A stretch of DNA of 64,000 nt from an uncultured Enterobacterales bacterium (GTDB lineage Bacteria; Myxococcota_A; UBA796; CAJQPC01), in NCBI GenBank assembly GCA_964519895.1, contig CAZFLE010000005.1, forward strand, positions 16,417 to 80,416. The letters are read 5' to 3'. The position numbers and the translations under genes were made by a program. The notes below the pieces were generated by a model. It was given only the letters and a program-made list of their open reading frames with translations, had not been told where the DNA came from and ran no database searches. This document shows positions 3,001 to 42,336 of the stretch, in pieces (position 1 is the stretch's first letter; each line of letters starts with the position of its first letter).

Positions 3001-6000
3001 GGCTTGCCGTCCTTGCCCTTGTTGCTCTTGAGCTGCTCGATCTTCTTGGCGAGGGTGGGGTCCCCCTTCTTGGCGCTCTTCAGCGCGGTGTCCAGGCTCT
3101 GTTCGGTCTTGGCGATGTCGGCCTCGACCGCCTCCTTGAGCTTGCCGGGGTCCAGGTCGTGCTGCTCGGCGATGGCGTCGAGCTTCTTCTGGCGGTCCGC
3201 CTCGCTGATGGTGGTGTCGAGCAGGACCTTCTGTGCGGCGGGGAAGCTCGCGGCCTTCTTCTTGTAGTTGTCGGTGCCCCGCCACAAGGTGCCCATGGAC
3301 TGGCCCGTGGACCCGGCCAGGTCGAACATCGCCATGGCCCGTTCCTTGGGGTCCTCGATCTTGGCGATGCGTTCGGTCTCGTCCTTGAGGGCCTTGTTGC
3401 CGACCACCCCGCCCTGGAAGGTGCCAGTGGCGTCCAGGTCGGTGGCCAGGGCGTGGCCTGAGATGAGGTCCGGGTTGCCGATCTCCTTGGCGAGCTTCAT
3501 CGCCTCGTCGCCGCCCTTGTCGAGGATGGCCTTCTGGTCCGGGGTCAGCGCGGTCGGTGCGTTCGGCTTGATCGGCATCGACATGAGCTGGACCGCCTGC
3601 TCGGCGGTGTAGCCCTTGGCCTTGTAGGCCTCGATGCGGTTCTTGGCGGTCTCGTAGTCCCAGCCCTTGTCCTTGTTCGCCTCGGCGAGCTCCGTGGCGC
3701 CCTTGACCTTGGCTTCGGCGTCGATGATCTTCTTGGAGAAGGCTTTCTTCTCGTCGTCGGTGGGGGCCTTGTCGCCAAAGGTCCTGAAGACGCCGTGGTC
3801 GCCCTCTGAGTCATGGGCGGCCTTGGCGAGTTTCTTGACGTCGTCCGGGAGCTTGTCCAGATCTTCCTTGGACACGAAGTTCAGATTGCGCATGAACTCG
3901 GAGGGCTTCATGTCGCGCTGCTTGGCCAGCTCGAACATCTTCTCCCGGCACGCGTCGACGTCCATGTTGACCTTGCCGTCCTTGTCCTTGACCTGGAACG
4001 CCCTGACCGCAGCCTCCCGGTCCTCGTTCATCCGGTGCCAGCGCTCGTTGAGCTTCTCCATGGCCGGCGAGACGTTGGCCTTCTGCTGGCCGTCGGCGCC
4101 CTTGACCGTGGTCTTCTCGTCCCAGACCTTGAGCAGATCGGCCTTGCTGATCTTGGGCTTCTGCTTCTGACCATAGGCGGCGATGGCCTTCTCGCGTTCG
4201 GCCTTGTTCGGGATGGTCTCGTACATGCCCATGACCGCGGAGGCCTGTTCCTCTTCCTTCTCCTGCTTCTTCTGTTCGTCGGTCTTGGTCTCTTCGGCGG
4301 CGGTGTCCTCGGCCTTCTTGTCGTCGGAGACCTTCTTCTCACCCGTGGTCTCTGCGCCCTTTTCGGAGAGGTCCTTCAGGTCCGTCTCGTCCTTCTTCTG
4401 GTCGTCGGTCTTCTCCTCGTCGGCCGGATCCTTGATCACGATGTCGATGAACTCGCCGTCCGGTCCTTCCTTCTTGCCGGCCGGGATGTAGACCACCATC
4501 GACGCGTAGTTGATGTCGAGCAGGGTGCAGTAGGCCTGGAGCACGGGCGCCGGGCAGCCGCCGGCCATCTGCATGTCGCCCACGGCGGAGTCGAAGATGT
4601 CCTTCTTCTTCTTGGCCTCCTTGACCTTGTCCTCCATCGGCTTCAAGGCGGCCCGGTGGGCCTCGAGCTGCTTGGCGGTGAGGCCTGACGCCAGCTCGGC
4701 GGCGGCGATCTCGGTGGGGAGCTCGCCCTCGCGCTTCTGGAGCGTGGCCAGCGACGCGGACAGGCTGACGACCTCGCTGTCCGTGTCGAGGTTCGGCGGC
4801 GGGCCCGGGTCCGTGGCGCCCTCGTGCTTGTCGTCAAAGGCCTTCTTCTTGGCTAGGTAGTCCCGGTTCAGGGCCTGCTTGCGGGTGCCGATGGCCCGGT
4901 TCTTGGACCCGACGCCGATCTGGGTGGTGGTGAGCTCGGCCTTGAGGGTGGAGACCTTCTTCATCGACTCCTGGGACTCGACGGGCAGCTTCTTGAGCTG
5001 CTTGTCGACCAGCTTCGAGAGGTCGGCTTCCTTCTTGGTGACGTCCTTGGCGATCTTCTCGCCCTTCTTCGGCAGCGCCTCGGCGACCTTCTTCGACGTC
5101 TGGATCTCCGCCACCGGCAGCGTGGGCCCGCCACCGCCACCGCCCTTGGGCTGCTTGTCCTGGATCTGCGCCAGGATGGCGTCGAGTTCTTCCTGCTTCT
5201 CGGTCTGGGACTCCTGGAGGGGCTCCATGTCCTCCTGGAGCTCCGTGCGGATCTTCTTCTCCTTGCCCAGGTCCTTGGGGAAGCGCTTGGACTTGGCCTG
5301 GAGGCCCTTGAGGCGAGTGTCCTTGTCCGGGGGCTTCGGCTTGCGGTTCTTCTTCTTGGCGACCGCTGAGAGCTTCTCCAGCTGGGCCTTGCGCTTGTCG
5401 AGCTCGGTCTTGTTCCGGGAGATCTTCTTCTCGACGTCGTCGATCTTGACCTGGACCTCGTCCACGTCATAGCCGAGCTCGCCGAGCTGGTAGGCGATGT
5501 CGTCGAGCTCCCACTGGAGGTCGTCGCGCAGCCGCTCGAGTTCCTCCAGGGTCGGCGGCTCGTCCTTGGCGGCGGTCTCTTCTTCCTTTTCCTCGGAGGT
5601 GGTCGAAGGCGCATCGCCGGTCTTGGTGCCCCCTTCCTTGGCGAGCTTGTCGATGTCCTCGGTGGACTTCTTCTTGTCCTCTGCCTTGGAGGCGTCGTCC
5701 TCCTTGGCGTCCTCCTCGGTGACCTCGCCCTCGCCCTCGCCTTCCTCCTCTTCCTCTTCCTCATCCTTCGGCGCCTCTTCCTTGGGACCCTCGGCCTTGG
5801 CGGCTTCGGGAGCCACAGGCGGTGCTGGTGCGTTCAGGGCCTTGACCACCGCCTTGCCCACCACCTTGAAGCCGGCGGCGCCGCCGCGGGCGAGCAGTGC
5901 AGCGTCGGCCTGGTTGGAAGACTCGTCGCCCGTGGCGGTCGAGCGTTCGGTCTTGGGCGTGTCGGTGGAGACCGGGGAGCTGTCGGCCGCAGGAGCGTCC
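1..6000 (-). other. Lys/Glu/Asp-rich helical tail of the giant protein (more than 2,000 aa, incomplete) with coiled-coil stretches and degenerate annexin-like repeats
   Basis: Examples: 'LEELERLRDDLQWELDDIAYQLGELGYDVDEVQVKIDDVEKKISRNKTELDKRKAQLEKL' (about 5560-5380), poly-E 'KDEEEEEEEGEGEGEV' (about 5790-5700), and recurring 'x-D-[DE]-x-x-I-x-x-x-[LF]-x-x-[LM]-x-x-x-[EQ]' units ('DADEDKIAEAFAAMSRSERAAF', 'DSDEIAALVQGCNPRELAEVQKEL'). AAG, GAG and GAC codons dominate. Confidence 0.6.
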
Positions 6001-9000
6001 GTGGTCGTGGCCTGGACCGGGGCAGGTGTCTCCTCGACGGTCCGGGTGAGCTTGGGGGCCGGCTCGTTCGTCGTGGCTGTCGCCTCGTCCTGCTTCAGCG
6101 CGTCGGGCTGCTCCGGGGCCTTGACCTCCTGGGGGGTGTTCGCCCGCTCGAAGGCGCCGCCGTAGAGCTCTTCGGACTCGGCGTTCAGCGCGTCGATCCG
6201 GGCCTGTTCAGAGTCGGTGAGCTCCCTGCCCTCGCGGGTGGCCTGGGCCTGGAGGCTGCGGGTCTCCTCGTAAATCTCGTGGCCCCGGCCGCCCTTGACC
6301 TCGAGAATCTCCCGGAGGTGGAGCTGGAGCTCGACCACGTGCCCGTTGGGCATGCGCACGTTGAGCAGCATGTCCCGGTAGCCGCCCGGCGCCGGGTTCT
6401 CGAAGCGGTCCTTCATGCGCACGATCTCGAACTGACCGTGGATGCTCTCCAGGCCCTTGTAGAGGGCGTCCATGGAGTCGTACTGGATGCTGCTGCGGGA
6501 CAGGTCCGTGAGCTGGGAGGCGTCGCCCCCGTACTCGGTGTCCATCTTCTCCGTGGCCCGCTCCCGACCCTTCAGGCCCGGTGGGTACATGGCCTCGCCA
6601 CCGGTGGCCGCCGAGATGGCGTCGGTGGCGTCGTGGAGCATGACGTCGGCGACGGCGGCGTCGCCGTAGAGCGCGTCCAGATCGTCGGTGGACTGGGTCC
6701 GGTCCCGGCCAGCGATGTCGTCGGCGACACTCTTGCTGACGGCTGCGTTGCCGGTCAGGGACTCGGTCTCGGGCACGGCCTGCTTCTTGGCCGGGTAGGG
6801 GGTCGGGTCCACACCCAGGCGCCGGGCGGTGTCCTGCAGGCTCTCGCCGACCTGGTGGGCGTCCCGGACCCGCACTGCCTCGTCGTGCTTGCTCGCGGGC
6901 ACCGTGAACTTGCCGTCGGGGCCTTCCAGGGTCAGCGTGGTGATGTTGGGTTCGTCGCTGGGCCCGTTCCAGGCCCGATCCAGCTGCTGCGCCGGGGTGA
7001 GCGGGGTGTCTGCCGAAGTGTCCGTGGTCGGTTCTGAGGTCGGTCCTGGGGTGATCTCCGGCGCCGTCTCTGGGACGGTGTCGTCGGTGGGTGCGCTGGA
7101 CTCCCGCGGCACCTCCCGATCCCGCTGCTCGCCGTAGCCGTCCGGGTGCGGGTTCGGGTTCCGGGGCACGTCCTGGAGCTCGCTCGTCCCGGTCTTGCGG
7201 AAGCTCTCGGGGAACGCCGAGACCACCCGACCCGTGGCCGGCTCATAGACCACGCGAATGCGCACGCCGTCCCGCTCGCCCCAGAACACGTGTCGGTTGG
7301 GGTCCCCGTTCTTGTTGTACAGGTTCGGGGAGTTGTTGGGGGACGCCTCGGCCTTGGGGTCGGTGACGATGTCGCTGACCCGGTTGACGATGTCGACGTC
7401 GGTCCAGGTGTTCGGGAACTCGGTCTTGTCGTAGACCATGCGACCGTTCTCGTGGCCGCCGCCGGTGCGGTCGCCCTCGAGGATGTGCTCCCGAGCCTGC
7501 TGGTCGAGCACGTCGACATCGGACAGCGGCTCGGACAGGTCCTTGGCATCGGCCGAGTCGCCGATGGGGTGGCTCGGGTAGTGACTCGGATCCAGACCCA
7601 GCCGGGCCGCGGTCTCCTGGAGGCTCTCCCCGGGGCGGTGAGCGGCCTGGACCCGGGTCGCGTCGCCGTACTCCGACGCGGGCAGGGTGACCTTTTCTCC
7701 CTGGACGTAGACGGTCGCCATCGACGGCTGCTCGGACTGGTTCTTGCCGTCGAAGTGGTCCTGGAGGGACTGGAGCTGGTCCGGGGTGACCCCCTGGCCG
7801 TCTGTGTCGGGGCCGCTGTCCGGGGTCTGGTCGCTGGCGCCGTTCGTCACCAGGTCCGGGGTCTCGTCGCCCCCGGTGGTGTTGACCGTGACCTCGCCGC
7901 CTTCCCGCAGCGCGACGTCGCCATCGGCGGTCTTGATCAGCTCCTTGTCGCCCTTGACCACGGCCATGGAGCCGTCGCCACCGATGGCGACGGCGTCGTT
8001 CATGGAGCCGGTCTCGCCGACCTCGGTGCCGCCGCTCTTGCCGTGGCCGCTGCCGTCGCCAGCCACCAGGGCCGAGCCGCCGTCGGTGGTCACCAGGGAG
8101 CCGTCGCCGGTCTCGGTGACGGTGGCGGTGCCGCCCTGCTTGGCGGCCTCGTTCATGACGCCGTCGACGTCTGTGGCCGAGTTCGGTGCCGTGTCGACGC
8201 CCCCGGCCTGGAGCTCGGCCTTGACCTCGGCGGCGGACGGCGCTGCGGCCTCGACGTCGGCCTCGGTGACCTGGAGGTTCTGTTCGGCGTCGCTGCCAGC
8301 CGTGTTGGCGGCCGAGACTTCGGTCTCCTTGGTCTTGACCCGCTGCTGCCACCCCTCGGCGAGCTTCTCCAGGACGCTGGTGACGGTCGCGTTGATGGTG
8401 GCGGTGGCGACCTGCTGGAATGCGGTCTCGGGGTCGACGGGCTTGCCGGTCGCCACGTCGATGAGGACGTTGGTGGTGGACCCCGCCAGCTCGCCGCCCC
8501 CACCAGATGCACCCGATGCGACGGCCTGCTTCCACAGGGGACTCTTCTCGTCGGACCACGCTTCGCCCCAGGCGCTGGTGTTGATGGCCTCGCTGGTCAT
8601 CGCCGTGACCGAGCTGGTGGTGCCCTTGCGCAGGGCGCCACCGCCCACATTCAGCAGGCCCTCGCCCACACCCTTGTCCCAGGTCTTGTCCTTGAGGCCG
8701 GTCTCGACACCGCCCTCGAGTGCCCCGGTGCCGAACGCCACGATGCCTTCGCCCAGGATCTTCTTGCCCCGGCTGGCGCCCTTGCCGAACAGCCCTCCGG
8801 CGGCCTGGAAGCGGGCGCCGACCCCGGCGGTGACGACGCTGGCCGCCGTGTTGCCCAGGTCGGCCACGGCCTGCTCCCAGCCGTAGCGGCCGCCCTTGAC
8901 CGCGTAGTTGATGCCCATCGAGGTCAGGCCAGTGATGCCGGCGACCCACATGGCCGCGGCGGGCCCCAGGGTGCCGCCGCTCAGCACCGTGGCGACGATG

Positions 9001-12000
9001 GCGATGAGCGCGGCCGCCGCGGTGGTCAGGATGTTCGCCAGCCGGTCCTGGGCCGCCCGGTAGTTCTCGGCGCTGATGCCCACGTAGTCGCACAGGATCA
9101 GGAAGCGCTCTTCCTGTTCCTTGGTGCCGTTGAACTTGCCGTCGGCCTTGTAGACCGAGTCGGGCTTGGAGCCGGGGACCTTGCAGGCCCGGACCAGCCG
9201 CTCGAGCTCGGCCATGTGGGTGGCCAGGTTGGCCCGCTCGTTGCCGGTGATGCCGTAGAACTCGGCGGCGGTCATGAGCACGTCGCCGGCGCCGGTGGAC
9301 TCGTCGCCCACCACCCACTCGTTCTGGAGCCGGGCGAGCTCCAGGCGCTGGTCCAGGGTCATGTACTTGGGGTCGCCGAGGAGCAGCTCCTCGACCTCGC
9401 GCCGCTCGTCGCCGGAGAGCTCGGAGCCCCAGCCGGAGTGGTCCTTGCCGGTCTTGCGGTTGTTGACGCCCAGAGCCGCGTCCAGGGCGTCGGTGTCGCC
9501 GGCCTCGAGCCCATAGGCCTGGGCGTGCTTGGTGGCGAAGATGCCGCGTAGCGCTTCGACCTCTTCCGGCCGCATGCCGGTCAGGGCCCGCTTGATCGCG
9601 TCCTCGTCGGTGCCCCCACGGTCGGTGGCGAGTCGGATCTGGTCGGCCGCCACCCGGGCCGTGTTGGTCCCGTCGGTCATCATGTTGGTGACCAGGTCGC
9701 GGCCGACCCCGGACTTGTCGTCGCCGCCGGGGAACATGGTCTTGACCGCGTCGCCGGTGGAGCGCTCGTAGTCCTTCTCGTACTGGGCCTGGAAGGCGTC
9801 GTTGCGCTTGCGCTGCTCGTCCTGGGCGGCCTGGCGGACCTTCTCGTCGGGGCTGTGGAGCCGCTCCTGGAGCTGGGCGTTGCCGTAGAGCGCGGTCTCC
9901 ATGCGCTTCATGTCGGGGCCGCCCTTGCGGGTGCGCTCGACCTCGAAGGCGTGGACCTGGGCGGCGGTGGAGTCCCGGCCCTCGGTCGCCAGGGCGACGG
10001 CCAGGTCCTTGTTCGGCCCCTCCAGCTTGCGGGTGATGGTCTGGGGCTGGCCGCCGTGGTGGCCGCCGTGGGGGTTGTGGACCTCGCGATCCTTGGTGAT
10101 GAAGTCGACGAACTGGGCTTGGGCCGCGCCCTGGTCGATGGGCTGGGTGGTGGTGGCCCCTGCGGCGCCCTTGTTCTCGATGTGGGCGAATTCCCGCTGC
10201 AGCTCGGCCAGCTGCTCGGGCTCGACGCCTCGGAGCGCGTCGGTCAGGTCGTCGGGCTTGCCGCTGCGGCGGGCTTTCTCGATCTTGTCGCGCAGCCGGT
10301 AGGCGTCGGCGCGGCGGGTGTTGCCCACCAGGAGCGACTCGGTGACGTTCAGGTCCGTGCCGCCCAGGTTGTCCTTGAGCCGGGCCTCGGTCGCCGACCA
10401 GTCCCCGAGCTTCTTCATGGCGTTGCGGTCGTCTTCGTTCAGGTCCCGCAGGACCGCCTCGATCTGGGCCTCATCGTCGCCGTACCAACGCATGTTGGTC
10501 TCGAGCTCCAGCCGGGCGCCTTCGGCCCGGTTGCCGATCAGGTACTGCTTGGCGACCTTGAGCTCGTCGCCGGACAGGTCGTCGTCCAGCCAGGACCGCA
10601 GGCTGGAGTCCCGGGGGAACAGGTCCGTCCAGATCATCTCCAGGGCCTTGCCCTTGAGGAAGGTCATGGGCCGGAGCGCATTGAAGAGCTTGTTCTCGTC
10701 GGTCCCCATGCCCGACATGGCGTCGTAGCAGCTGTCCGCCCGCTTCACGAGGTCCTTGCGGAGACCGGACGCCGCCTGCTCCGCCTTGGGGGCCACCGTG
10801 GTGGGGAACTTGGTCATGATGGCGTCGAGCTGGCCGCCGTAGGCGGTCACCTGGGCATCGAGGGCCGTCTCGGTCTCGGTCTTGAGCACGCCCAGGTCGG
10901 TGACGCACTTCGCCTTGTAGGCGGTCATGTCCTCCTGGACCGGGGCGACGTAGTCCTTCATCGCCTGGTCCACGGCGCCGCCCACGAGCACCATGGACTC
11001 GCCAAAGGCCAGCGACGCGTCCTCGATGCCCTTGGCCTTTTCCGTCATCAGGGCGTCGGCTTCGGTCTCGTTGTCCGACGCGATCTTCTCGATCTTCTCC
11101 AGGTCGCCGGCGACACGGCCGTCGATCGTGACGTGGGCAGCGTCCAGGGAGCCCTGGAGGTCGGCCAGGTTCTGGCGGTGGAACGCCCCCAGGGCGTCCT
11201 GTTGCTGGGTCAGGTAGGCCTGGGCGTCGTCGGCGGTGAGGAAGGTCTGGTCCGGCAGGCTGTCCGAGATGCCCTGGACGAAGTCCCGGTAGGACTGGGT
11301 GAAGGTGCCGGCGGCGGTGGTGAGCTGGGCCTCGACGCTGTCGGCGATCTCGGCCATGTCCGTCTCGAGCTGGGTCGAGATGTCCTGGAGCTCGCCGACA
11401 GCGGTGGTCTCGTCCTCGTCGAGCTGGGTGATGGCGGTGGACCGGGTGTCCTCGATGCTGGTCTCGGCCGAGGTCCGATCGGTGGCGAGCTGGCCGGTGG
11501 CCTGGGAGTAGGACCCGTCCAGGGCCCCCAGGGTGTGGTCGCGCACCGCCATGACCTGGTCGGCCAGGGGCTTGAGCAGGCCGTCGACCTTCTTCTGGTA
11601 GATGGCCTTGCTGGCGGTGACCTCGGCGGCCTTGGCCGGACCGCCCTTGGTGCCCATGTCCTTGGCGGCTTCGTCCAGGGCCTTGGCTGCGGTCTCCCGG
11701 CGGACCTCTTGCTTGGCCCGCTCCAGGATGTCGCCGCCACTGTCGGGAAAGGCCTCCTTGGCGAGCTCTCTCTTGCGGGTCTTGAAGGTGGCGGCCTTTT
11801 CGGTGGCCTTGGCCTGGAATTTGGGGGCCTTGTCCTTCAGGACGGTCTCGAAGGGCTCTACCCAGGTCTCGCCGAGCCCCAGCACCTCGCCCATGCCCAG
11901 GTCAAAGGTCGTCTGGGACTTCGTCAGGCCGTCGGCGTGGCCCTGTTGGAGCTGGCCCTCGGCGGCGGTGGCGTCGATGTCGACCTGGGACGTGGCCATG

Positions 12001-13949
12001 TCGGCGGCGGTGCCCACCCCGTCCCGGGCCGTGCTGTAGGCGGTCTGAACGCGGCCGATCGCGGCGGTGGCCTTGCCCTGCAGGTCCATGGCCTTGCCGG
12101 ACATCACGCTGTGCACGGTGCCAGCGAGCTCCTGGGCCTTGGCGATGGCCTCGCCCTGGAGGGTCTCGGCCCGGGTCCGGAGCTGACCGATGCCGGCCTG
12201 GATCAGGGCCTGGTGCTGCTCGGGGGACTGGCCCGTCTGGCGGGTGACGGCGTCGACCTGGTCTTGGTCCAGGTCGGGCATGCACATGGCGACTTCAGGG
12301 ATGCCGCCGACGGCCGGGGTCTCGTCGGGCTGGAGCGGTGGCGCACCCCCCCCGCCACCGCCGCCACCGGTGGCCGCGGGCTCGCCGCCGCCGCCCTCGC
12401 CGTCGGCAGCCGCGGGTTCTTCGGCACCCTCCTCGGCCTCGCCGCCTTCGGCGTCGGCTTCGCCTTCGCCCTCCTCCTCGGCGGGGGCTTCCTCGGCGGG
12501 CGGGGCCTCTTCCTCTTCCTTGTCCCCGGCGGCGTCGCTCTTGTCCTTGTCCTCCTTGTTCTCGGCCTTCTCGCCGTCCTTGTCCTCGCCTTCCTCTTCC
12601 TTGTCCTCGCCCTCGGACCCGGCCTTGGGCCCTTCCTCGACCTCCTCCTCGTCGGGGCCGACCTCGAGCTCCTGGCGGTGGATGCTCGTGCCGCCGCGCT
12701 CGTGCTGGGTCTGGGCTTGGGTAAACTCCGCGGCGTCGACTTCGACGGCGGTGGCCTGGGCCGTGAGGCTCGGCGCCGCGACCAAGCCGTGGCTCTCGGC
12801 GGCCTCGGCCTCGCGTTCCAGAGGGTCGCCGGGCATGGACACGACGACCTGGCCCGCCGCGGGCAGGGGAATGCGGCCCTCGTCGTGCTGGACCACGTGG
12901 GTGAGCTCGTGGGCGATGAGCGCGTCGCCGTCGGTGGTGCCGGGGCTGTAGGCCCCGTCCCGGAAGTAGATGTCCCGGCCGACGGTCAGGGCCCTGGCCC
13001 CGGCGATCTGGCAGGCCAGGGCAGCCGCCGAGCCGATGTGGATCTGGACCCCTCGGAGCTGGCGGCCCGGAGCCAGCCGGTCGACGACGTCCTGGGGAAG
13101 GCTGAGCCCGGCGCTCTGCCCCAGCACGGTGCGAAGGTGCTGGGGCATCTCCCGGTCCCCGGCCTGGTCCCGGCGGGCCATGGCCGCCACGCTGGCCCCG
13201 GACACCTGCTCAGCCAGGGCAGCGGTCGCCCCGGAGAGGCCTTCGTAGGGGGCCATGGCGGACTGGTGGAAGGCGATGTCGTCGGCCGACGGGAACCCCA
13301 CCCGATCCACGAGCTCGTCGAGGCCCGTGTCGGTGTGGAGGTCCTGGTGGAGCGCGAGCAGGTCGGCCCGGGCGGCGTCGGCCAGGTCCGGCTCGCCAGT
13401 CCACTGCTCCAGGTTGGTGAGGTGCTCGGCCACCGTGCGCAGGCCCTTGCCGACCATGACGGCGTGCAGGCTGTCTTCGATCACGTCGGCCGATGGCGGC
13501 GGGGGATGGGCCGGCAGCTGGCCGAGCAGGCGGCTCAAGATGGCGAGGCCCGCCGAGTCGACAGGGAGCCGAGCGGTGAGTCCCCACGCGTCGGAGGTTG
13601 CCGGCTCGCGGGTGCCGTTGAGCTCGGCCAGCTGCTCCCGCTCCCGCCAGGCGACCTCGTAGAGCGGGGTGACCATCTGCAGCCAGGAGCGGTCGGCCTG
13701 CCAGGGCAGGTAGGGGCCGATGTCGAACCCGGTGGCCTCGGCCACGTCGAGGAGGTGGGCCAGGTAGAGGTCCTCGGAGTCCCCGGGCCCCTCGACCCTC
13801 AGGCGGGCCAGGTGGCGATTTCCGAACCGCTGCTGCAGCGCGGCCACGGCCTCGAGACCCCTGTCGGGCGCACGCGCAACGGTGCCTTCGGACCCCGTCT
13901 CGGGGCCCTGGCCTTTGCGGCCTTTGCGCGCGCGGGGGAGATGTGCCAT
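1..13949 (-). CDS. Giant multidomain polymorphic-toxin-like protein, at least 4,649 aa; the 3' end lies beyond the left edge of the window
   Basis: ATG at 13949 ('MAHLPRARKGRKGQG..') has an in-frame TGA 8 codons upstream. Every minus-strand ORF in the track between 1 and 13949 lies in the other two frames, so this frame has no stop. Hand translation at 13949, 13140, 12960, 10760, 7560, 6720, 4500, 1020 and position 5 stays in one frame with GC3-rich codons and protein-like sequence. Domain evidence is listed in the sub-features. Confidence 0.88.
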   Translation of the reverse strand, partial: MAHLPRARKGRKGQGPETGSEGTVARAPDRGLEAVAALQQRFGNRHLARLRVEGPGDSEDLYLAHLLDVAEATGFDIGPYLPWQADRSWLQMVTPLYEVAWREREQLAELNGTREPATSDAWGLTARLPVDSAGLAILSRLLGQLPAHPPPPSADVIEDSLHAVMVGKGLRTVAEHLTNLEQWTGEPDLADAARADLLALHQDLHTDTGLDELVDRVGFPSADDIAFHQSAMAPYEGLSGATAALAEQVSGASVAAMARRDQAGDREMPQHLRTVLGQSAGLSLPQDVVDRLAPGRQLRGVQIHIGSAAALACQIAGARALTVGRDIYFRDGAYSPGTTDGDALIAHELTHVVQHDEGRIPLPAAGQVVVSMPGDPLEREAEAAESHGLVAAPSLTAQATAVEVDAAEFTQAQTQHERGGTSIHRQELEVGPDEEEVEEGPKAGSEGEDKEEEGEDKDGEKAENKEDKDKSDAAGDKEEEEAPPAEEAPAEEEGEGEADAEGGEAEEGAEEPAAADGEGGGGEPAATGGGGGGGGAPPLQPDETPAVGGIPEVAMCMPDLDQDQVDAVTRQTGQSPEQHQALIQAGIGQLRTRAETLQGEAIAKAQELAGTVHSVMSGKAMDLQGKATAAIGRVQTAYSTARDGVGTAADMATSQVDIDATAAEGQLQQGHADGLTKSQTTFDLGMGEVLGLGETWVEPFETVLKDKAPKFQAKATEKAATFKTRKRELAKEAFPDSGGDILERAKQEVRRETAAKALDEAAKDMGTKGGPAKAAEVTASKAIYQKKVDGLLKPLADQVMAVRDHTLGALDGSYSQATGQLATDRTSAETSIEDTRSTAITQLDEDETTAVGELQDISTQLETDMAEIADSVEAQLTTAAGTFTQSYRDFVQGISDSLPDQTFLTADDAQAYLTQQQDALGAFHRQNLADLQGSLDAAHVTIDGRVAGDLEKIEKIASDNETEADALMTEKAKGIEDASLAFGESMVLVGGAVDQAMKDYVAPVQEDMTAYKAKCVTDLGVLKTETETALDAQVTAYGGQLDAIMTKFPTTVAPKAEQAASGLRKDLVKRADSCYDAMSGMGTDENKLFNALRPMTFLKGKALEMIWTDLFPRDSSLRSWLDDDLSGDELKVAKQYLIGNRAEGARLELETNMRWYGDDEAQIEAVLRDLNEDDRNAMKKLGDWSATEARLKDNLGGTDLNVTESLLVGNTRRADAYRLRDKIEKARRSGKPDDLTDALRGVEPEQLAELQREFAHIENKGAAGATTTQPIDQGAAQAQFVDFITKDREVHNPHGGHHGGQPQTITRKLEGPNKDLAVALATEGRDSTAAQVHAFEVERTRKGGPDMKRMETALYGNAQLQERLHSPDEKVRQAAQDEQRKRNDAFQAQYEKDYERSTGDAVKTMFPGGDDKSGVGRDLVTNMMTDGTNTARVAADQIRLATDRGGTDEDAIKRALTGMRPEEVEALRGIFATKHAQAYGLEAGDTDALDAALGVNNRKTGKDHSGWGSELSGDERREVEELLLGDPKYMTLDQRLELARLQNEWVVGDESTGAGDVLMTAAEFYGITGNERANLATHMAELERLVRACKVPGSKPDSVYKADGKFNGTKEQEERFLILCDYVGISAENYRAAQDRLANILTTAAAALIAIVATVLSGGTLGPAAAMWVAGITGLTSMGINYAVKGGRYGWEQAVADLGNTAASVVTAGVGARFQAAGGLFGKGASRGKKILGEGIVAFGTGALEGGVETGLKDKTWDKGVGEGLLNVGGGALRKGTTSSVTAMTSEAINTSAWGEAWSDEKSPLWKQAVASGASGGGGELAGSTTNVLIDVATGKPVDPETAFQQVATATINATVTSVLEKLAEGWQQRVKTKETEVSAANTAGSDAEQNLQVTEADVEAAAPSAAEVKAELQAGGVDTAPNSATDVDGVMNEAAKQGGTATVTETGDGSLVTTDGGSALVAGDGSGHGKSGGTEVGETGSMNDAVAIGGDGSMAVVKGDKELIKTADGDVALREGGEVTVNTTGGDETPDLVTNGASDQTPDSGPDTDGQGVTPDQLQSLQDHFDGKNQSEQPSMATVYVQGEKVTLPASEYGDATRVQAAHRPGESLQETAARLGLDPSHYPSHPIGDSADAKDLSEPLSDVDVLDQQAREHILEGDRTGGGHENGRMVYDKTEFPNTWTDVDIVNRVSDIVTDPKAEASPNNSPNLYNKNGDPNRHVFWGERDGVRIRVVYEPATGRVVSAFPESFRKTGTSELQDVPRNPNPHPDGYGEQRDREVPRESSAPTDDTVPETAPEITPGPTSEPTTDTSADTPLTPAQQLDRAWNGPSDEPNITTLTLEGPDGKFTVPASKHDEAVRVRDAHQVGESLQDTARRLGVDPTPYPAKKQAVPETESLTGNAAVSKSVADDIAGRDRTQSTDDLDALYGDAAVADVMLHDATDAISAATGGEAMYPPGLKGRERATEKMDTEYGGDASQLTDLSRSSIQYDSMDALYKGLESIHGQFEIVRMKDRFENPAPGGYRDMLLNVRMPNGHVVELQLHLREILEVKGGRGHEIYEETRSLQAQATREGRELTDSEQARIDALNAESEELYGGAFERANTPQEVKAPEQPDALKQDEATATTNEPAPKLTRTVEETPAPVQATTTDAPAADSSPVSTDTPKTERSTATGDESSNQADAALLARGGAAGFKVVGKAVVKALNAPAPPVAPEAAKAEGPKEEAPKDEEEEEEEGEGEGEVTEEDAKEDDASKAEDKKKSTEDIDKLAKEGGTKTGDAPSTTSEEKEEETAAKDEPPTLEELERLRDDLQWELDDIAYQLGELGYDVDEVQVKIDDVEKKISRNKTELDKRKAQLEKLSAVAKKKNRKPKPPDKDTRLKGLQAKSKRFPKDLGKEKKIRTELQEDMEPLQESQTEKQEELDAILAQIQDKQPKGGGGGGPTLPVAEIQTSKKVAEALPKKGEKIAKDVTKKEADLSKLVDKQLKKLPVESQESMKKVSTLKAELTTTQIGVGSKNRAIGTRKQALNRDYLAKKKAFDDKHEGATDPGPPPNLDTDSEVVSLSASLATLQKREGELPTEIAAAELASGLTAKQLEAHRAALKPMEDKVKEAKKKKDIFDSAVGDMQMAGGCPAPVLQAYCTLLDINYASMVVYIPAGKKEGPDGEFIDIVIKDPADEEKTDDQKKDETDLKDLSEKGAETTGEKKVSDDKKAEDTAAEETKTDEQKKQEKEEEQASAVMGMYETIPNKAEREKAIAAYGQKQKPKISKADLLKVWDEKTTVKGADGQQKANVSPAMEKLNERWHRMNEDREAAVRAFQVKDKDGKVNMDVDACREKMFELAKQRDMKPSEFMRNLNFVSKEDLDKLPDDVKKLAKAAHDSEGDHGVFRTFGDKAPTDDEKKAFSKKIIDAEAKVKGATELAEANKDKGWDYETAKNRIEAYKAKGYTAEQAVQLMSMPIKPNAPTALTPDQKAILDKGGDEAMKLAKEIGNPDLISGHALATDLDATGTFQGGVVGNKALKDETERIAKIEDPKERAMAMFDLAGSTGQSMGTLWRGTDNYKKKAASFPAAQKVLLDTTISEADRQKKLDAIAEQHDLDPGKLKEAVEADIAKTEQSLDTALKSAKKGDPTLAKKIEQLKSNKGKDGKPLSPDDVEALLRVINSKTGIDIDTLRGVNGKVAFKQEMDARQEAVLGKKSKAATRAEEHLNELKEDHPALAKDIDRLLKNDPPLTPEEKEDLRKKIVSVEQQDVFGGIGWGMDASRAFETLDQEDEDREEKKRLFEQETGKPYSPEAASDYVVETCKLAGIPPSAKGLVEWIETAPRSAMMDQPLLAMMKDERTKESDYVETDPDRIAELEHTDPIAYRRAKRWQKKSKALTGAMNKKDPSEKDIKDAFDDMTRAQIRALLTANPPVTLADGRSIAAVLDQYIAEHTDDGKIEDGWGSVASDLGKARQKSKEDTARVARMQDKDTRNMAADAVKRVGAVRAAAKALSTPEKPVSALEANEHMKAIQAQLAADGEKASAADALAFLTDAKAAGKDPNEALNDLYQPKQDDEGNPVVSAAMKQRLKNLEKLPPEERLKILQELQGRTGLSAEDLKKAWSEVRTENAIVKQVHKIRQLPEAKQLEALKDLAMLQLGASELEGLKGDALKEALKKYADKLNGAYDNRMAAIKAQLPPSAQIYKPGSSGTKADVDKQVKFYAGAAGIDADEMRMLVEEERRVGVKAELENVVGKEEYKKLAAEAHAQGMSPEAYAEHLARSPAGVLKDDKFALAMKKKMGVGRHDGYQIKWSAEEKAEMGRLGLVCDKNSDAYKKKKQGMLDKLDDGNDDAILAHFSSLTPAEKQQLLKDIPTLRDKFESALQCGDETSGLKMVDAIDTSEDLTQSMLAADVTSERYASNSKKLFDQLKKGDDADEDKIAEAFAAMSRSERAAFVVEYRAAQTHAMKAHGTGATDGNLPQNLDTFLTEPEHVDMLNEANTLAMGKTTQKGTDKAHKIQEDGKAIKAATAKTGMDPLVARSWLEGMSKDGGFSSIHQLWHFMETGELKKDDNRSAGAKGFADAVAKEVDKKRREDAESWFSWGDTKDYDKPGAVNKDDKVGGHTRNPERISDLTSKISSNGDSDEIAALVQGCNPRELAEVQKELA
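6280..6680 (-). other. RelA/SpoT-homologue (RSH, alarmone-synthetase-like nucleotidyltransferase) toxin-type domain
   Basis: Base-by-base translation gives 'PGLKGRERATEKMDTEYGGDASQLTDLSRSSIQYDSMDALYKGLESIHGQFEIVRMKDRFENPAPGGYRDMLLNVRMPNGHVVELQLHLREILEVKGGRGHEIYEETR'. It follows the RelA_SpoT order: basic 'K.R....K', 'D...R..i', 'kD....P...GYR.l...v', 'vElQl', 'H.iYe..R'. Confidence 0.7.
6792..6950 (-). repeat. Pre-toxin module copy 2 (LysM-like), immediately N-terminal to the RelA/SpoT-like domain
   Basis: 'TTLTLEGPDGKFTVPASKHDEAVRVRDAHQVGESLQDTARRLGVDPTPYP', a paralogous duplicate of 7566-7722. Confidence 0.6.
7195..7500 (-). other. EndoU-like (bacterial EndoU nuclease family) toxin domain
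   Basis: Base-by-base translation gives 'EHILEGDRTGGGHENGRMVYDKTEFPNTWTDVDIVNRVSDIVTDPKAEASPNNSPNLYNKNGDPNRHVFWGERDGVRIRVVYEPATGRVVSAFPESF'. It matches the EndoU_bacteria pattern: 'H.l.G.....GGH', 'FP..Ws...i...i..v..dP', 'G..i.VV.....G.ivtAfP'. Confidence 0.75.
7566..7722 (-). repeat. Pre-toxin module copy 1 (LysM-like, ~55 aa), immediately N-terminal to the EndoU domain
   Basis: 'ATVYVQGEKVTLPASEYGDATRVQAAHRPGESLQETAARLGLDPSHYP' aligns with copy 2 ('PAS', 'RV..AH..GESLQ.TA.RLG.DP..YP'). The 'GESLQETAARLGLDP' core resembles the LysM 'GDTL..IA..yGv' core. Confidence 0.6.
8690..9045 (-). other. Hydrophobic transmembrane / glycine-zipper segment of the giant protein
   Basis: 'LANILTTAAAALIAIVATVLSGGTLGPAAAMWVAGITGLTSMGINYAV', then 'LGNTAASVVTAGVGARFQAAGGLFG' and 'GEGIVAFGTGALEGGVETG'. 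These are the only strongly hydrophobic stretches in the protein. Confidence 0.65.
9540..10745 (-). other. Annexin-type helical repeats (several copies)
   Basis: 'ADSCYDAMSGMGTDENKLFNALRPM' (10745-10670) and 'RLATDRGGTDEDAIKRALTGMRPEEVEALRGIF' (about 9640-9540) carry the annexin endonexin signature G-x-G-T-[DE]-E-x-x-[LI]. Degenerate copies lie between them ('WYGDDEAQIEAVLRDLNEDDRNAM', 'LTDALRGVEPEQLAELQREF'). Confidence 0.55.
10760..12300 (-). other. Long Ala/Gln/Thr/Asp-rich predicted alpha-helical region (apolipoprotein-like or coiled-coil-like)
   Basis: The translation has almost no Pro or Gly breaks and amphipathic periodicity (e.g. 'AKAQELAGTVHSVMSGKAMDLQGKATAAIGRVQTAYSTARDG..'). No specific family recognised. 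Confidence 0.5.
12335..12680 (-). other. Acidic Glu/Asp/Gly/Lys low-complexity linker in the giant protein
   Basis: Translated 'EVGPDEEEVEEGPKAGSEGEDKEEEGEDKDGEKAENKEDKDKSDAAGDKEEEEAPPAEE..GGGGGGGAPP'. Confidence 0.8.
12870..13100 (-). other. DUF4157-type metallopeptidase-like domain (HExxH) in the giant protein, about aa 285-360
   Basis: Translated 'LRGVQIHIGSAAALACQIAGARALTVGRDIYFRDGAYSPGTTDGDALIAHELTHVVQHDEG'. This matches the DUF4157 pattern ('VRvH.G..A......A.AfT.G.dI.F..g.Y.P.t..G..LlAHELaHVvQ'). The HELTH codons are at 12911-12897. Confidence 0.8.
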
Positions 13950-13973
13950 GGGCAGGAGGCTCTGGCGGAATCA

Positions 13974-16329: not shown

Positions 16330-19300
16330 TCAGTCCGGGCAGCCCTCGACCACCCAGGTCTCAATGATCGCCAGGGTGGCCTTGTCCAGGAAGGGGCCAC
16401 CGCGAGGCATCTGCTGCCCGGCGCCGCCCACGTCGCCCTGGGTGTTGTTGAGCTTGTGCCAGATGTAGCTCTGGGAGGTGTCCCCGGGCTCGAAGAGGTC
16501 CATGGCCGGCACGTCGATGGAGGCCACGTTCACGTGGTCCACCGTGCCGTTGTCCATGTTGAAGCCACCGCTCGCCGCACCGCTCAGGTGGCAGCCGTCG
16601 CAGTTGGCGTCGAAGATCGGCTCGATGTCCGTGGCGTAGGTGTAGGTGTAGCTGTCCACGCCGTCGCAGTCCTGGTCGATGCCGTCGCCGTTGATCTCGG
16701 TGGCGCCCGGGTTGATGCCGGCGTCGCTGTCGTCGCAGTCGGTGTTGTCCGCCGACGTGTTCGACGGCTGGAGACAGGCCAGGGTGCCGGGGTCGGTGTC
16801 GTCGCCGTAGCTGTCGCCGTCGGCGTCGGCGTACCAGGTGGACCGACCGGTCACGCCGGCGTCTGCGTCGTCGATGTCGCCGTTGCAGTCGTTGTCCACG
16901 CCGTCGCAGATCTCGGTGGCGCCCGGGTTGATGGCGATGTCCCCGTCGTCGCAGTCGACGTCGGACGTGAAGCCGTCGCCGTCGGCGTCGGGCGGGCCGG
17001 CGTCGCAGTCGTCGTTGGCGCTGCCGGGGGTGCCGGAGTCGCCGCTGCCAAAGGTGCTCGTGGCCGCGCACCAGTTGGCGCCGTCGTCGTTCTCGGTGAC
17101 GTCGAGGTGGTCCCCGTCGAGGGAGATCGACGCACCCGCCGTGTTCGGGAATGTGGCTCCCCCGTCGTAGGCGACCTGATCGATGGTCAGGCTGCCGTTG
17201 TACAAGAAGACCTCGTCGGCGAAGTTGGCCAGCCGGTGGGTGCTGCCGTACTCGTGGTCGACCGTCACGCCGCCGTTGGCCGCGGCGTCGCCGTCGATTC
17301 CCAGCACCACGTACTCACCCGCCAACACGGGCACGGACCCAGAGACCTGGACCCACTCGCCCATCACGGCGACCGAGGTGTCGAAGATCTCCAGCCCGTC
17401 CAGCTCGATGGTCACCAGCGTGTTGTTGTAGATCTCGATCCACTCGCCGCGCAGGTCACCGACCGCCACCGGGTTGTGGTGGAGCTCGGTGATGATCAGG
17501 TCCCCTTCGATCAGATCCCCGACCGCCAGGTCCGAGCCGCCCCCGGTGCAGGCGTCGTTGGCGCTGCCCGGGGTGCCCAGGTCCCCGTCGCCGAAGGTGG
17601 AGGTCGCCGCGCACCAGTTGGCGCCGTCGTCGTTGCTCAGATCGTCGAGGGTGTCCGGGTTCAGGCTGAAGCTGGCGCCCGTCGGGTCCGGGAAGGTCAG
17701 GCCATTGTCCCAGGACACGCTGTCGATGATGGTGCTCCCCACCCCCAGGAACAGCTCGTCGGACGCATTGCCCAGGGTGTGCGCACCCCCATAGGTCTCG
17801 GCCAGGCTGACGCCCCCGTTGACGCCCAGGTCGCCGTAGCGCCCGAGCAGCACGTAGGCGCCGGGCTCGACCAGGACCCCGCCAGAGAGGGTGACCAGGT
17901 TGCCCTTGGTCGTGCTGTCGGTGTCGTAGAGCTCGAGTCCGTCCAGGTCCACGGTGCTGCCCGTGGCGTTGTAGAGCTCCATCCACTCGCCGGCGTTGTC
18001 CGGCACGGCGTCGGGGTCGACCATCAATTCCGTGATGACCAGATCGCCCGCCGTCAGGTCGTCGACGGACAGCGCACAGCTGTCGTTGGCCGCGCCCGGG
18101 GTGCCCAGGTCCCCGTCGCCGTAGCTCGACGTCGCCACGCACCAGTTGTTGCCGTCGTCGTTGTCGGTGGCGTTCAGGTGATCGGGATCCAGGATCATCG
18201 CCGCACCGCTCGGGTCCGGGAACGTGAAGCCGTTGTCCCAGGACACGGAGTCGATGACGTCGGTGCCGTTGTACAGGAAGGTCTCGTCGGCCGCATTACC
18301 CAGGGTGTGACCGGTGCCGTAGGCGTAGTCCAGGGTCACGCCACCGTTGGTGGCGACGTCGGCCCTGCGGCCCAGGACCGCATAGGCCCCCGCCGCGACG
18401 AGCACCTGTCCAGAGACCGTGATCTTGTCGGTCTGGGCGGCGACCGAGGTGTCGAAGACCTGGAGTCCGTCCAGGTCGACCACGCCAGCGGTGTTGTTGT
18501 AGATCTCGAACCACTCGCCGCGGTTGTCGGGCACCGCCGACGGCTCCTTCATGATCTCGGTGATGATCAGGTCACCGGCCACCAGATCCGCGACCGCCGT
18601 CCCGCCCCCGCCGCCACCGCAGCTGTCGTTGACCGCGCCCGGTGTGCCCAGGTCACCGGCGCCAAAGGACGAGGTCGCGTCACACCAGCTCGACCCGTCA
18701 TCGTTGCTGGTGGCGTCCTGGCTGGCCGAGGACAGGGAGATCGAAGTGCCGGCCGTGTCGGGCCAGGTGCTGCCGTTGTCGTAGGCGATGCTGTCCAGCA
18801 CGGTGGACCCGTCGGACAGGAAGATCTCGTCGGCGCCATTGCCCAGGGTGTGGGCGAAGCCGTAGGCGTAGTCCAAGGCGACGCCGCCATTGGCGCCGGT
18901 GTCCGAGTTGCGGCCCAGCACCGCCAGCCCGCCGTCGGCGACCACCACGCTGCTGCCCACCGTGACCAGGTTGCCCTGGGTGACCTCGTCGGTGTCGAAG
19001 ATCTGGAGACCCTGAAGGTCCACGTCGACCCCGGCGGCGTTGTAGATCTCGAACCACTCCCCCGCGCCAGCGCCCGAGGCCACGGGCTCTTTGAAGATCT
19101 CGTTGATCACCAGGTCCCCGACCGCCAGCTCGGTGACGGCAAAGGTCGAGCAGCTGTCGTTGGCCGCTCCCGGCGTGCCCAGGTCGCCGTCGCCGTACGC
19201 CGACCGCGAAACGCACCAGCTGGCGCCGTCGTCGTTGCTGGTGGCGTCCTGGCTGGCGCTGTCCAGGCTGATGCTGGCCCCCGTGGGATCGGGGAAGCTC

Positions 19301-19797
19301 AGGCCGTTGTCCCACGCGATGCTGTCGATCACGTCGGTCCCATTGGACAGGAAGAGCTCGTCGGAGGCGTTGCCGAGCACGTGGGCGACGCCGTAGGCGT
19401 AGTCGACGGGCGCCCCGCCGTTGGTGGACTGGTCGGTCTTGCGCCCGAGCACCACGTGGCTGCCGGCATCCACGATCAGGGTGCCTGAGACGGTGAAGCT
19501 GTTGCCCGGCGACGCCACGCTGGTGTCGAAGACCCGGAGTCCGTCCAGGTCTACGTTGAGGCCGCTCGCGTTGTAGATCTCGAACCACTCGCCGGCTCCG
19601 TTTGCAACGGCGCTGGTGTCGATCATGACCTCGTTGATCACCAGGTCGCCCACAGCGAGATCGGCCACGAAGAGCTCGGCCGGCCCGGTGTCCTTGGCCG
19701 AGGCCCAGAAGCCCCCCAGATCCGCGGAGTCCAGGGACAGGTCTTCAGAGCACCCGGCCAGCAGAGCGAGGAAGACGACGGGACGAATGCCCTTCAT
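16330..19797 (-). CDS. Lipoprotein (1,155 aa) with five lamin-tail-domain (LTD) repeats, two MopE-type metal-binding motifs and a C-terminal PSCyt1-like CxxCH domain
   Basis: ATG 19797 'MKGIRPVVFLALLAGC' (lipobox) has GGAG 7 nt upstream. The 610-aa N-terminal part of the track ORF is antisense to the 19939 gene. There are five repeats of 'GDL[VI]I[NT]E...GEWFEIYN...VDLDGL'. Also 'DADGDGFTSDVDCDDGDIAINPGATEICDGVDNDC' and a C-terminal 'IEPIFDANCDGCH...QMPRGGP...IETWV'. Confidence 0.8.
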   Translation of the reverse strand: MKGIRPVVFLALLAGCSEDLSLDSADLGGFWASAKDTGPAELFVADLAVGDLVINEVMIDTSAVANGAGEWFEIYNASGLNVDLDGLRVFDTSVASPGNSFTVSGTLIVDAGSHVVLGRKTDQSTNGGAPVDYAYGVAHVLGNASDELFLSNGTDVIDSIAWDNGLSFPDPTGASISLDSASQDATSNDDGASWCVSRSAYGDGDLGTPGAANDSCSTFAVTELAVGDLVINEIFKEPVASGAGAGEWFEIYNAAGVDVDLQGLQIFDTDEVTQGNLVTVGSSVVVADGGLAVLGRNSDTGANGGVALDYAYGFAHTLGNGADEIFLSDGSTVLDSIAYDNGSTWPDTAGTSISLSSASQDATSNDDGSSWCDATSSFGAGDLGTPGAVNDSCGGGGGGTAVADLVAGDLIITEIMKEPSAVPDNRGEWFEIYNNTAGVVDLDGLQVFDTSVAAQTDKITVSGQVLVAAGAYAVLGRRADVATNGGVTLDYAYGTGHTLGNAADETFLYNGTDVIDSVSWDNGFTFPDPSGAAMILDPDHLNATDNDDGNNWCVATSSYGDGDLGTPGAANDSCALSVDDLTAGDLVITELMVDPDAVPDNAGEWMELYNATGSTVDLDGLELYDTDSTTKGNLVTLSGGVLVEPGAYVLLGRYGDLGVNGGVSLAETYGGAHTLGNASDELFLGVGSTIIDSVSWDNGLTFPDPTGASFSLNPDTLDDLSNDDGANWCAATSTFGDGDLGTPGSANDACTGGGSDLAVGDLIEGDLIITELHHNPVAVGDLRGEWIEIYNNTLVTIELDGLEIFDTSVAVMGEWVQVSGSVPVLAGEYVVLGIDGDAAANGGVTVDHEYGSTHRLANFADEVFLYNGSLTIDQVAYDGGATFPNTAGASISLDGDHLDVTENDDGANWCAATSTFGSGDSGTPGSANDDCDAGPPDADGDGFTSDVDCDDGDIAINPGATEICDGVDNDCNGDIDDADAGVTGRSTWYADADGDSYGDDTDPGTLACLQPSNTSADNTDCDDSDAGINPGATEINGDGIDQDCDGVDSYTYTYATDIEPIFDANCDGCHLSGAASGGFNMDNGTVDHVNVASIDVPAMDLFEPGDTSQSYIWHKLNNTQGDVGGAGQQMPRGGPFLDKATLAIIETWVVEGCPD
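17010..19671 (-). repeat. Five tandem ~531-bp coding repeats (LTD units of ~177 aa)
   Basis: Each unit starts near '..L.VGDL[VI]I.E' and ends 'GDLGTPG[AS][AV]ND[SAD]C'. The repeats are diverged at the DNA level but collinear. Confidence 0.75.
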
Positions 19798-19938
19798 GGC
19801 GGGCTCCGTGGAAGAGGAAGGCGGAAGGTCAGGCGAGTGTCGCACCGGACCTCGATCCTTCACAACCGAGGTGCCGCCCCCGGGTGGCTTGACAGGGAAG
19901 AGGTCGGGTCCTACCCACCCCTCCAAGCTGGAGATGCG

Positions 19939-42319: not shown

Positions 42320-42336
42320 GGGGCCACGGTACTCCC

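Follow-up and report, generated by a model that had tools for sequence, protein, structure and literature searches.

Five tandem annexin-type repeats, R1 to R5, lie within a giant open reading frame (ORF) of an uncultured bacterium that is deposited as a member of the Enterobacterales and has the GTDB lineage Myxococcota_A. The stretch of DNA analysed here, hereafter the window, comprises 64,000 nucleotides (assembly GCA_964519895.1, contig CAZFLE010000005.1, positions 16,417 to 80,416 of the forward strand), and the repeats occupy about 475 residues on its minus strand, at window positions 9372-10745. Judged by its sequence and its structural model, the core region (residues 1076-1533) is an annexin domain, and we regard it as almost certain that the annexin repeats belong to a polymorphic toxin. 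A preliminary description, made from the letters of the window alone, had placed annexin repeats inside a bacterial toxin at 9540-10745 because of two strong peptides with a GxGTDE-like motif. Both peptides are present on the minus strand: YDAMSGMGTDENKLFNALRPM, which begins YDAMSGMGTDE, at residues 1082-1102 (window 10665-10727), and ATDRGGTDEDAIKRALTGMRPEEVEALRGIF, which begins ATDRGGTDED, at residues 1448-1478 (window 9537-9629). Repeats do fill the range given there, except that its lower bound of 9540 cuts through R5, the real end of which is at 9372.

The annexin assignment is carried by sequence comparison at several levels. When the 517-residue region was compared with all PDB sequences using phmmer, 50 matches were obtained at E ≤ 10, and every one of them is an annexin. 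The best single-sequence match is annexin VI (E 7.4e-7), and the alignments span the GxGTDE loop together with the downstream DLSGD. A profile made from alignment A1, which holds 29 sequences of the module, reaches annexin VI at E 1.7e-31; all 60 matches listed, of 79 at E ≤ 1, are again annexins. A repeat hidden Markov model (HMM) seeded solely from an unrelated, Pfam-annotated bacterial annexin, P0001, recovers R1 at 6e-11 and R5 at 1e-6. With the annexin-exclusive PDB matches, these values make the two strong motifs of the preliminary description annexin far beyond chance. The Pfam Annexin family (PF00191), proposed there as a check, gave a divided answer. On the giant protein alone its score is 12.8 bits (E 0.13), short of the cutoff of 25, and a plain hmmscan would therefore miss the module, whereas 17 of 25 full-length relatives match (best 7e-75). 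The closest relative among the matches listed, P0002, is 63% identical in the module and scores 26.3 bits, above the gathering cutoff of 25.

Structure prediction points the same way. The AlphaFold2 (AF2) model computed with A1 has a mean predicted local distance difference test score (pLDDT) of 92.2 and a predicted template-modelling score (pTM) of 0.87, and its 25 repeat helices form five groups of five, to which two inserted hairpins are added. The best 50 matches listed in a Foldseek search of the PDB with this model are all annexins (probability 1.00, E about 4e-6), so the helical repeats that the preliminary description had expected from a structural model do appear. An explanation by chance, in which the protein has no annexin domain and owes its motif matches to a low-complexity composition that is helical and acidic, could appeal to the low Pfam score of this protein alone, to the GTDE tetrapeptide, expected about 0.2 times in 4,656 residues by an estimate from composition, and to look-alikes at noise level in the tail of the protein. 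For the core region it is refuted by the annexin-exclusive PDB searches (7e-7; 1.7e-31), the model of five by five helices and the Pfam matches in relatives, and as an account of the whole we give it practically no credence. Chance or low complexity was ruled out for residues 1076-1533 by the PDB searches and Foldseek.

Only part of the classical Ca2+-binding signature is kept across the five repeats. R1 carries, as read from its residues, a full type II Ca2+ signature, with the loop M-S-G-M-G-T-D-E and an acidic cap, D1131, directly before L-S-G. The loop of R5 reads D-R-G-G-T-D-E and its cap is E1517-L-S-G; a β-hairpin is inserted in the loop between helices D and E. Across relatives, G1453, T1454, and S1519 of R5 are invariant (56 of 56), and the Glu/Asp cap and S-G are conserved. 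The predicted type II site, that is, GxGT followed ≈38-40 residues downstream by an acidic residue, is thus complete in R1 only and near-canonical in R5. The remaining loops have diverged: that of R2 is degenerate (R-W-Y-G-D-D-E, HWYGDDE in the family form), with Asn at the cap position; R3 has lost the GxGT motif (ARRSGKPDD) and has a β-hairpin inserted between helices D and E; and R4 has a degenerate loop, TRKGGPDM, and a long helix C. In the giant protein's own sequence R3 and R4 bear little resemblance to annexin, but A1 aligns their columns one by one with canonical repeats (DAMDGMGTDED for R3, GAGTDEKK for R4) of three relatives, P0046, P0094, and P0126, in which the HMM made from P0001 only detects these equivalent repeats. 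Because of this column alignment, the preliminary description was correct in placing weaker copies between its two strong motifs; R2, with its WYGDDE, aligns to canonical GxGTDE repeats of the same three proteins as well, and the model resolves five units of five helices. Coordinates of the repeats and of the other features of the giant ORF are collected in Table 1.

Table 1. Features of the giant ORF, in residues of the encoded protein and in positions of the window
Feature	Residues	Window	Strand	Basis or remark
Giant ORF, polymorphic multi-domain toxin		3-13949	minus	>4,649 codons from ATG at 13949; open at left end
eCIS_core (DUF4157, "PVC-metallopeptidase") N-terminal domain		12876-13067	minus	Pfam PF13699
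T/Q/A/D-rich helical region	560-1060	10791-12293	minus	Upstream of annexin module; local phmmer
R1	1076-1147	10530-10745	minus	Aligns to annexin VI repeats; model helices H2-26 to H75-85
R2	1148-1217	10320-10529	minus	Family repeat HMM 44.8 bits; five model helices H89-155
R3	1218-1331	9978-10319	minus	Model helices H159-271 plus strands
R4	1332-1434	9669-9977	minus	Model helices H276-374; PDB 6tu2 match, profile positions 276-431
R5	1435-1533	9372-9668	minus	Profile positions 378-455 against annexin VI, 8.6e-11
Hydrophobic Gly-rich region after module	1640-1900	8271-9053	minus	Local comparison with relatives; conserved columns in alignment A2
Pre-toxin element, copy 1	2081-2140	7551-7730	minus	Just upstream of EndoU; BLASTP
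EndoU-type RNase toxin domain	2182-2255	7206-7427	minus	Pfam PF14436, E 2.8e-11, 44.3 bits against cutoff 25.3
Pre-toxin element, copy 2	2339-2400	6771-6956	minus	Upstream of RelA/SpoT-like domain; BLASTP
RelA/SpoT-homologue, Tas1-like alarmone synthetase domain	2468-2553	6312-6569	minus	PDB 6ox6 and Pfam RelA_SpoT
Orphan Lys-rich helical tail	2700-4656 and beyond	3-5873	minus	No demonstrable annexin

The protein around the module has the layout of a multi-domain toxin. Its stop-free frame spans window 3-13970, residue i being encoded at 13971-3i to 13973-3i, and it is still open at the window's left edge, which leaves the C-terminus and the genes downstream of it out of view. The GC content at third codon positions (GC3) is 0.91-0.96 along the entire ORF, and the frame is therefore truly coding over its full length. 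From the N-terminus, the order of domains is eCIS_core/DUF4157 with an HExxH motif, a helical linker, the five annexin repeats, and a hydrophobic two-helix hairpin with a Gly-rich region; two cassettes follow, each made of a 55-residue pre-toxin element and a toxin domain, and then the Lys-rich orphan tail. The two toxin domains are predicted to be, in order, an EndoU RNase and a Tas1-like (p)ppApp/(p)ppGpp synthetase. The eCIS_core match is strong (E 1.4e-20 / 6.7e-21, ≈74 bits against a cutoff of 22), and HELTH, an instance of HExxH, occupies residues 354-358 of the protein within that domain. Within residues 2440-2620, Tas1 (PDB 6ox6) is matched at E 2.8e-6 and Pfam RelA_SpoT at E 1.1e-4, its 22.9 bits being under the cutoff of 27; a RelA/SpoT-like domain is also found in P0033, which is annotated as a RelA/SpoT nucleotidyltransferase in its source. 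In eCIS_core (E 1e-20), EndoU, and the Tas1-like RelA/SpoT domain, the toxin context put forward by the preliminary description has its support.

The segments between these domains are less readily classified. The helical region upstream of the module is common to 21 of the 150 relatives listed (by local phmmer), 150 of a total of 316 being the basis for all such counts below, and has a weak Pfam Apolipoprotein match (E 0.018 here, 1.6e-6 in relatives). Between it and the eCIS_core domain, at residues ≈400-560 (window 12290-12770, minus strand), lies an extremely acidic low-complexity stretch, rich in E, D, G, and K and with a run of G, that none of the 150 relatives has in common with it. The two pre-toxin copies, of ≈55 residues, are 49% identical to each other (BLASTP E 4e-18) and follow the consensus V.LPAS...DA.RV..AH..GESLQ.TA.RLG.DP..YP, of which P0002 has two copies as well. 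The element could mark the junction of a cassette, serve as a processing site, or form a small pre-toxin domain.

Downstream of the module, two predicted membrane-spanning helices, recognized by their hydrophobicity (residues 1645-1691, window 8898-9038), are followed by GRYGWE and Gly-rich segments. This hydrophobic region recurs in 93 of the 150 module-bearing relatives. No Pfam family matches it above threshold, the sole match in the scanned stretch being RP-C_C (E 0.0027, 18.4 bits against a cutoff of 32.6). As far as can be read from its residues, it resembles a domain for membrane insertion, so far uncharacterised, that accompanies the annexin module.

The relatives come from a HMMER search that covered 1.84 billion cluster representatives exhaustively and returned 316 at E < 1e-3, 162 of them below 1e-10. 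Bacterial annexin repeats had been called rare in the preliminary description, and a module present in 316 cluster representatives makes that an overstatement. Most relatives are 2,000-4,300 residues long, and 55 of 150 share the module over almost its full length. They come from metagenome-assembled genomes of "Deltaproteobacteria"/Myxococcota, from Sorangium sp. So ce1128, and from Caldilineaceae, Verrucomicrobia, and Chloroflexota, and public annotation has them as "hypothetical protein". Their C-terminal parts are not shared with the giant protein: the EndoU region is found in none of the 150 and the RSH (RelA/SpoT-homologue) domain in one. In place of these, the 25 full-length relatives scanned with Pfam have A_deaminase, ART, ADPrib_exo_Tox, Ntox30, or RelA_SpoT domains. 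A shared module and hydrophobic scaffold joined to variable C-terminal domains is the pattern of polymorphic toxins. The same 25 proteins have no PAAR, RHS, LXG, TPS, or other known trafficking domain; helix-hairpin-helix domains occur in four of them.

We infer, tentatively, that the toxin uses its annexin module and hairpin to dock onto or breach membranes, a reading that seems to us plausible rather than probable. The module would bind acidic phospholipid head-groups of the target membrane through Ca2+ ions bridged by the AB loops, those of R1 and probably R5. Binding would put the adjacent hydrophobic hairpin at the bilayer, into which it would insert, and the two parts together would dock onto or breach the membrane for a toxin carrying variable enzymatic domains. 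From its DUF4157 domain, the protein would likely be cargo of an extracellular contractile injection system (eCIS), with the genes for that system elsewhere in the genome.

Several observations weigh against this proposal. Lipid or Ca2+ binding has been measured for no bacterial annexin of this family. The Ca2+ motif is missing from three repeats, R2 to R4, and the first Gly of the R5 loop is replaced by Arg here and in P0002, Gly being found in 43 of 56 relatives. Superposition of the whole module on eukaryotic annexin cores is poor (TM-score 0.17-0.25, root-mean-square deviation 14-22 Å), so the module cannot be assumed to have the convex face by which the classical disc of four repeats binds membranes; a curved disc of four repeats with all Ca2+ loops on its convex face is not what the module presents. 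With regard to delivery, just 12 of the 150 module-bearing relatives have eCIS_core, and the module is therefore not tied to eCIS delivery. No eCIS structural gene was found among the 19 ORFs scanned in the ≈50 kb upstream (window 13768-57915), nor any such gene within 10 kb of the close relatives P0153 and P0007. The hydrophobic hairpin could equally well anchor the protein in the membrane of the producer itself.

Taken further, this last point leads to a role in the producing cell, in which the giant protein would be fixed in the cell's own membrane by its hairpin, with the annexin repeats against that membrane, for storage, surface display, or contact-dependent presentation. We consider this unlikely. 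Free Ca2+ in the bacterial cytoplasm is low, which fits poorly with a conserved type II site, and the giant protein itself has an eCIS_core domain. In addition, exported polymorphic toxins have the same order of a trafficking domain, an accessory module, and variable toxin domains at the C-terminus (PMC3482391). What speaks for such a role is that no N-terminal signal peptide is evident in the sequence, that a membrane-anchored cytosolic topology has been predicted for the Burkholderiales JOSHI_001 annexin-colicin D protein (Kodavali et al., PMC3894181), and that eCIS genes were not found nearby and most relatives are without eCIS_core.

The Ca2+ sites can also be read as a switch, by analogy with the Ca2+-driven folding of RTX toxins. 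In the producer or in an injection tube, at low Ca2+, the toxin would stay inactive or unfolded with its module loose; high external Ca2+ would then fold the module and trigger exposure of the hairpin or autoprocessing by the HExxH domain. We know of no precedent for annexins as folding switches, and we find the idea improbable. The AF2 model is compact and confident with no Ca2+ in its input, which has little bearing on stability, and three repeats are without a Ca2+ site. On the other hand, the loop residues of R1 and R5 are conserved across 56 relatives, a putative metallopeptidase stands at the N-terminus, and a role for DUF4157 in maturation or temporal inactivation has been suggested by Geller et al. 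(PMC8213781).

A more far-reaching proposal would make module and hairpin a self-contained translocation device, triggered by Ca2+ or lipid and a counterpart of the diphtheria-toxin T domain, that many Myxococcota, Chloroflexota, and Verrucomicrobiota would use to carry huge multi-cassette toxins across target membranes with no need of an injection machine. It fits the data in that 138 of the 150 relatives are without eCIS_core and no eCIS genes lie near, and we treat it as a long shot. Weaker again is an extension of it, in which the last ≈800 residues of the tail would hold a few extremely degenerate annexin half-repeats that form a second membrane-binding surface.

The tail extends for ≈1,950 residues after the toxin domains and contains 12-15% K and 2-4% R in a genome of ≈70% GC. 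Such an extension is unusual in that a toxin domain is the normal terminus of polymorphic toxins. Its codon usage is native (GC3 0.93-0.95); since the ORF is uniform in GC3 and codon choice, an assembly chimera is unlikely to be the cause of the odd tail. No Pfam domain was found in the tail, no internal repeats were found in it by BLASTP self-comparison, and large database searches returned no homologue. The Pfam Annexin model matched nothing in ten overlapping tiles of residues 3250-4656, even at E ≤ 10. A repeat HMM derived from the family gave two half-length matches, which cover helices A-C only: residues 4426-4459 (window 594-695) at 9.9 bits and residues 3883-3918 (window 2217-2324) at 7.0 bits; three more matches scored -0.4 to -3 bits. 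In block-shuffled versions of the tail, 9.9 bits was reached in 0 of 400 and 7.0 bits in 1 of 400, with 0.9 matches per shuffle at -3 bits or more. The reversed tail, which keeps the helical periodicity, gave six matches at -3 bits or more, the best at 4.1 bits. A single-sequence AF2 model of residues 3860-4656 has a pLDDT of 54, and a Foldseek search with it found no annexin (best E 0.54); a model as poor as this is evidence neither for nor against annexin.

Two peptides of this K/E-rich tail had been offered in the preliminary description as further annexin copies. As text both are there, DADEDKIAEAF...VVEY at residues 4424-4449 (window 624-701) and DSDEIAALVQGCNPRELAEVQKEL, which begins DSDEIAALVQ, at residues 4632-4655 (window 6-77). 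As annexin copies they did not hold up: the first is marginal, at 9.9 bits, and the second, at -2.7 bits, is at chance level. With Pfam tiles and BLASTP negative, the HMM and its controls leave two marginal half-repeats, and annexin in the tail is unproven; chance or low complexity is the most likely reading for most of the look-alikes found there.

The surroundings of the giant ORF appear typical of Myxococcota-like genomes, the ≈50 kb upstream encoding LTD (lamin-tail domain)/MopE, CotH, sulfatase, FG-GAP, and DUF1501 proteins. Two large proteins of secreted type are encoded there on the minus strand, one of 1,873 residues with five LTD stretches and MopE Cu-binding motifs (window 16333-21951) and another with LTD, F5/8 type C, and CotH kinase-like domains (window 39296-42841). 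Both lamin-tail proteins seem unrelated to the toxin and typical of this type of genome. An aminotransferase gene of the neighbourhood recurs on metagenome contigs, which end short of the toxin gene. Among the loci of relatives that were viewed, an AAA ATPase gene stands upstream in the Sorangium locus L013 only. At the P0153 locus (L019:13604-17364), the toxin gene is followed by an ORF of 519 residues that overlaps its stop codon, and two genes downstream of the toxin a 734-residue protein with a second eCIS_core domain is encoded; the flanks of this locus have genes for MopE/FG-GAP proteins, as the window does. P0001, from which the repeat HMM was seeded, represents another annexin-plus-effector architecture. 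Over its 569 residues it has four clean annexin repeats (GWGTDE, GLGTDE, GMGTDE, and GIGTNE) and then a C-terminal metalloprotease-like motif, HEFGHxxGLxDEY, and its N-terminal ALQRGAGN resembles ALQQRFGN near the N-terminus of the giant protein.

Both the architecture and the hypothesis of membrane docking are already in the literature since 2012-2014, and no new principle is added here. Zhang et al. 2012 (PMC3482391) recorded "Repeats: Annexin" with PVC-metallopeptidase in Ntox3 toxins of Haliangium and proposed that annexin aids the breaching of the target membrane. The bacterial annexins that Kodavali et al. 2014 (PMC3894181) reported from 17 species include Haliangium proteins in which annexin is combined with DUF4157 and toxin domains, as well as proteins for which transmembrane regions were predicted; the authors thought it probable that the annexin domains they recognised are separated by further, divergent ones. 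Geller et al. 2021 (PMC8213781) identified DUF4157 as an eCIS core marker, with linkers of >1,000 residues, and counted Annexin (PF00191) among the eukaryote-like domains associated with eCIS. The incremental addition is that such a "linker" holds one conserved five-repeat annexin module with a confident model, coupled to a conserved hydrophobic hairpin; that this module is widespread in metagenomes, in at least 316 clusters; and that the present protein, which has two toxin cassettes and an orphan tail, is of exceptional length. Because it is large, well conserved, confidently modelled, and flanked by a fixed hairpin neighbour, the module is a good construct for testing the membrane docking and lipid choice of bacterial toxin annexins. 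If the docking proposal is true, the module could account for the way in which DUF4157 toxins of great length get to their targets, and it could serve again as the targeting part of engineered injection systems.

Among known systems, the eCIS-associated toxins (EATs; PMC8213781) share with the giant protein an N-terminal DUF4157 domain, toxin domains far downstream, and a "linker" of >1,000 residues. Unlike for EATs, no eCIS structural gene accompanies the giant protein in the 50 kb upstream or two close relatives within 10 kb. Afp18, the giant cargo of the Serratia antifeeding prophage, is a comparable protein that may be named beside the EATs. The likeness to Tas1, the (p)ppApp synthetase toxin of Pseudomonas aeruginosa that is delivered by a type VI secretion system (PDB 6ox6), and to exported alarmone synthetases (PMC12691689) concerns the RSH domain of the giant protein only; the differences from Tas1 are a Pfam score below the gathering threshold and a different delivery system. 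With eukaryotic annexins (PF00191; annexin A5 and A6/VI, PDB 1avc), the module has in common a five-helix repeat of ≈70 residues, with significant similarity of sequence and fold, and, in R1, the type II loop (M/L)-x-G-x-G-T-D-E with an acidic cap before L-S-G ≈40 residues on. It differs from them in having five repeats instead of four or eight, three of them without a Ca2+ motif, and long β-hairpin insertions in R3 and R5, in a global arrangement that does not superpose, and in being embedded in a giant toxin rather than forming a free cytosolic protein.

The nearest counterparts are the annexin-Ntox3 and annexin-Peptidase_M90 toxins of Haliangium ochraceum. As published, and compared by description, they differ from the giant protein in three respects: one or two annexin domains were recognised there, whereas five contiguous repeats form one 475-residue module here; they carry Ntox3 or an M90 peptidase in the place of EndoU and a Tas1-like RSH domain; and the giant protein is about twice as long, with its ≈1,950-residue tail without relatives. 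Like them, it comes from a myxobacterial (delta-proteobacterial) host and combines an N-terminal DUF4157 domain with HExxH, internal GxGTDE annexin repeats, predicted transmembrane segments, and C-terminal toxin domains, and it shares with them the proposed accessory role in breaching a membrane.

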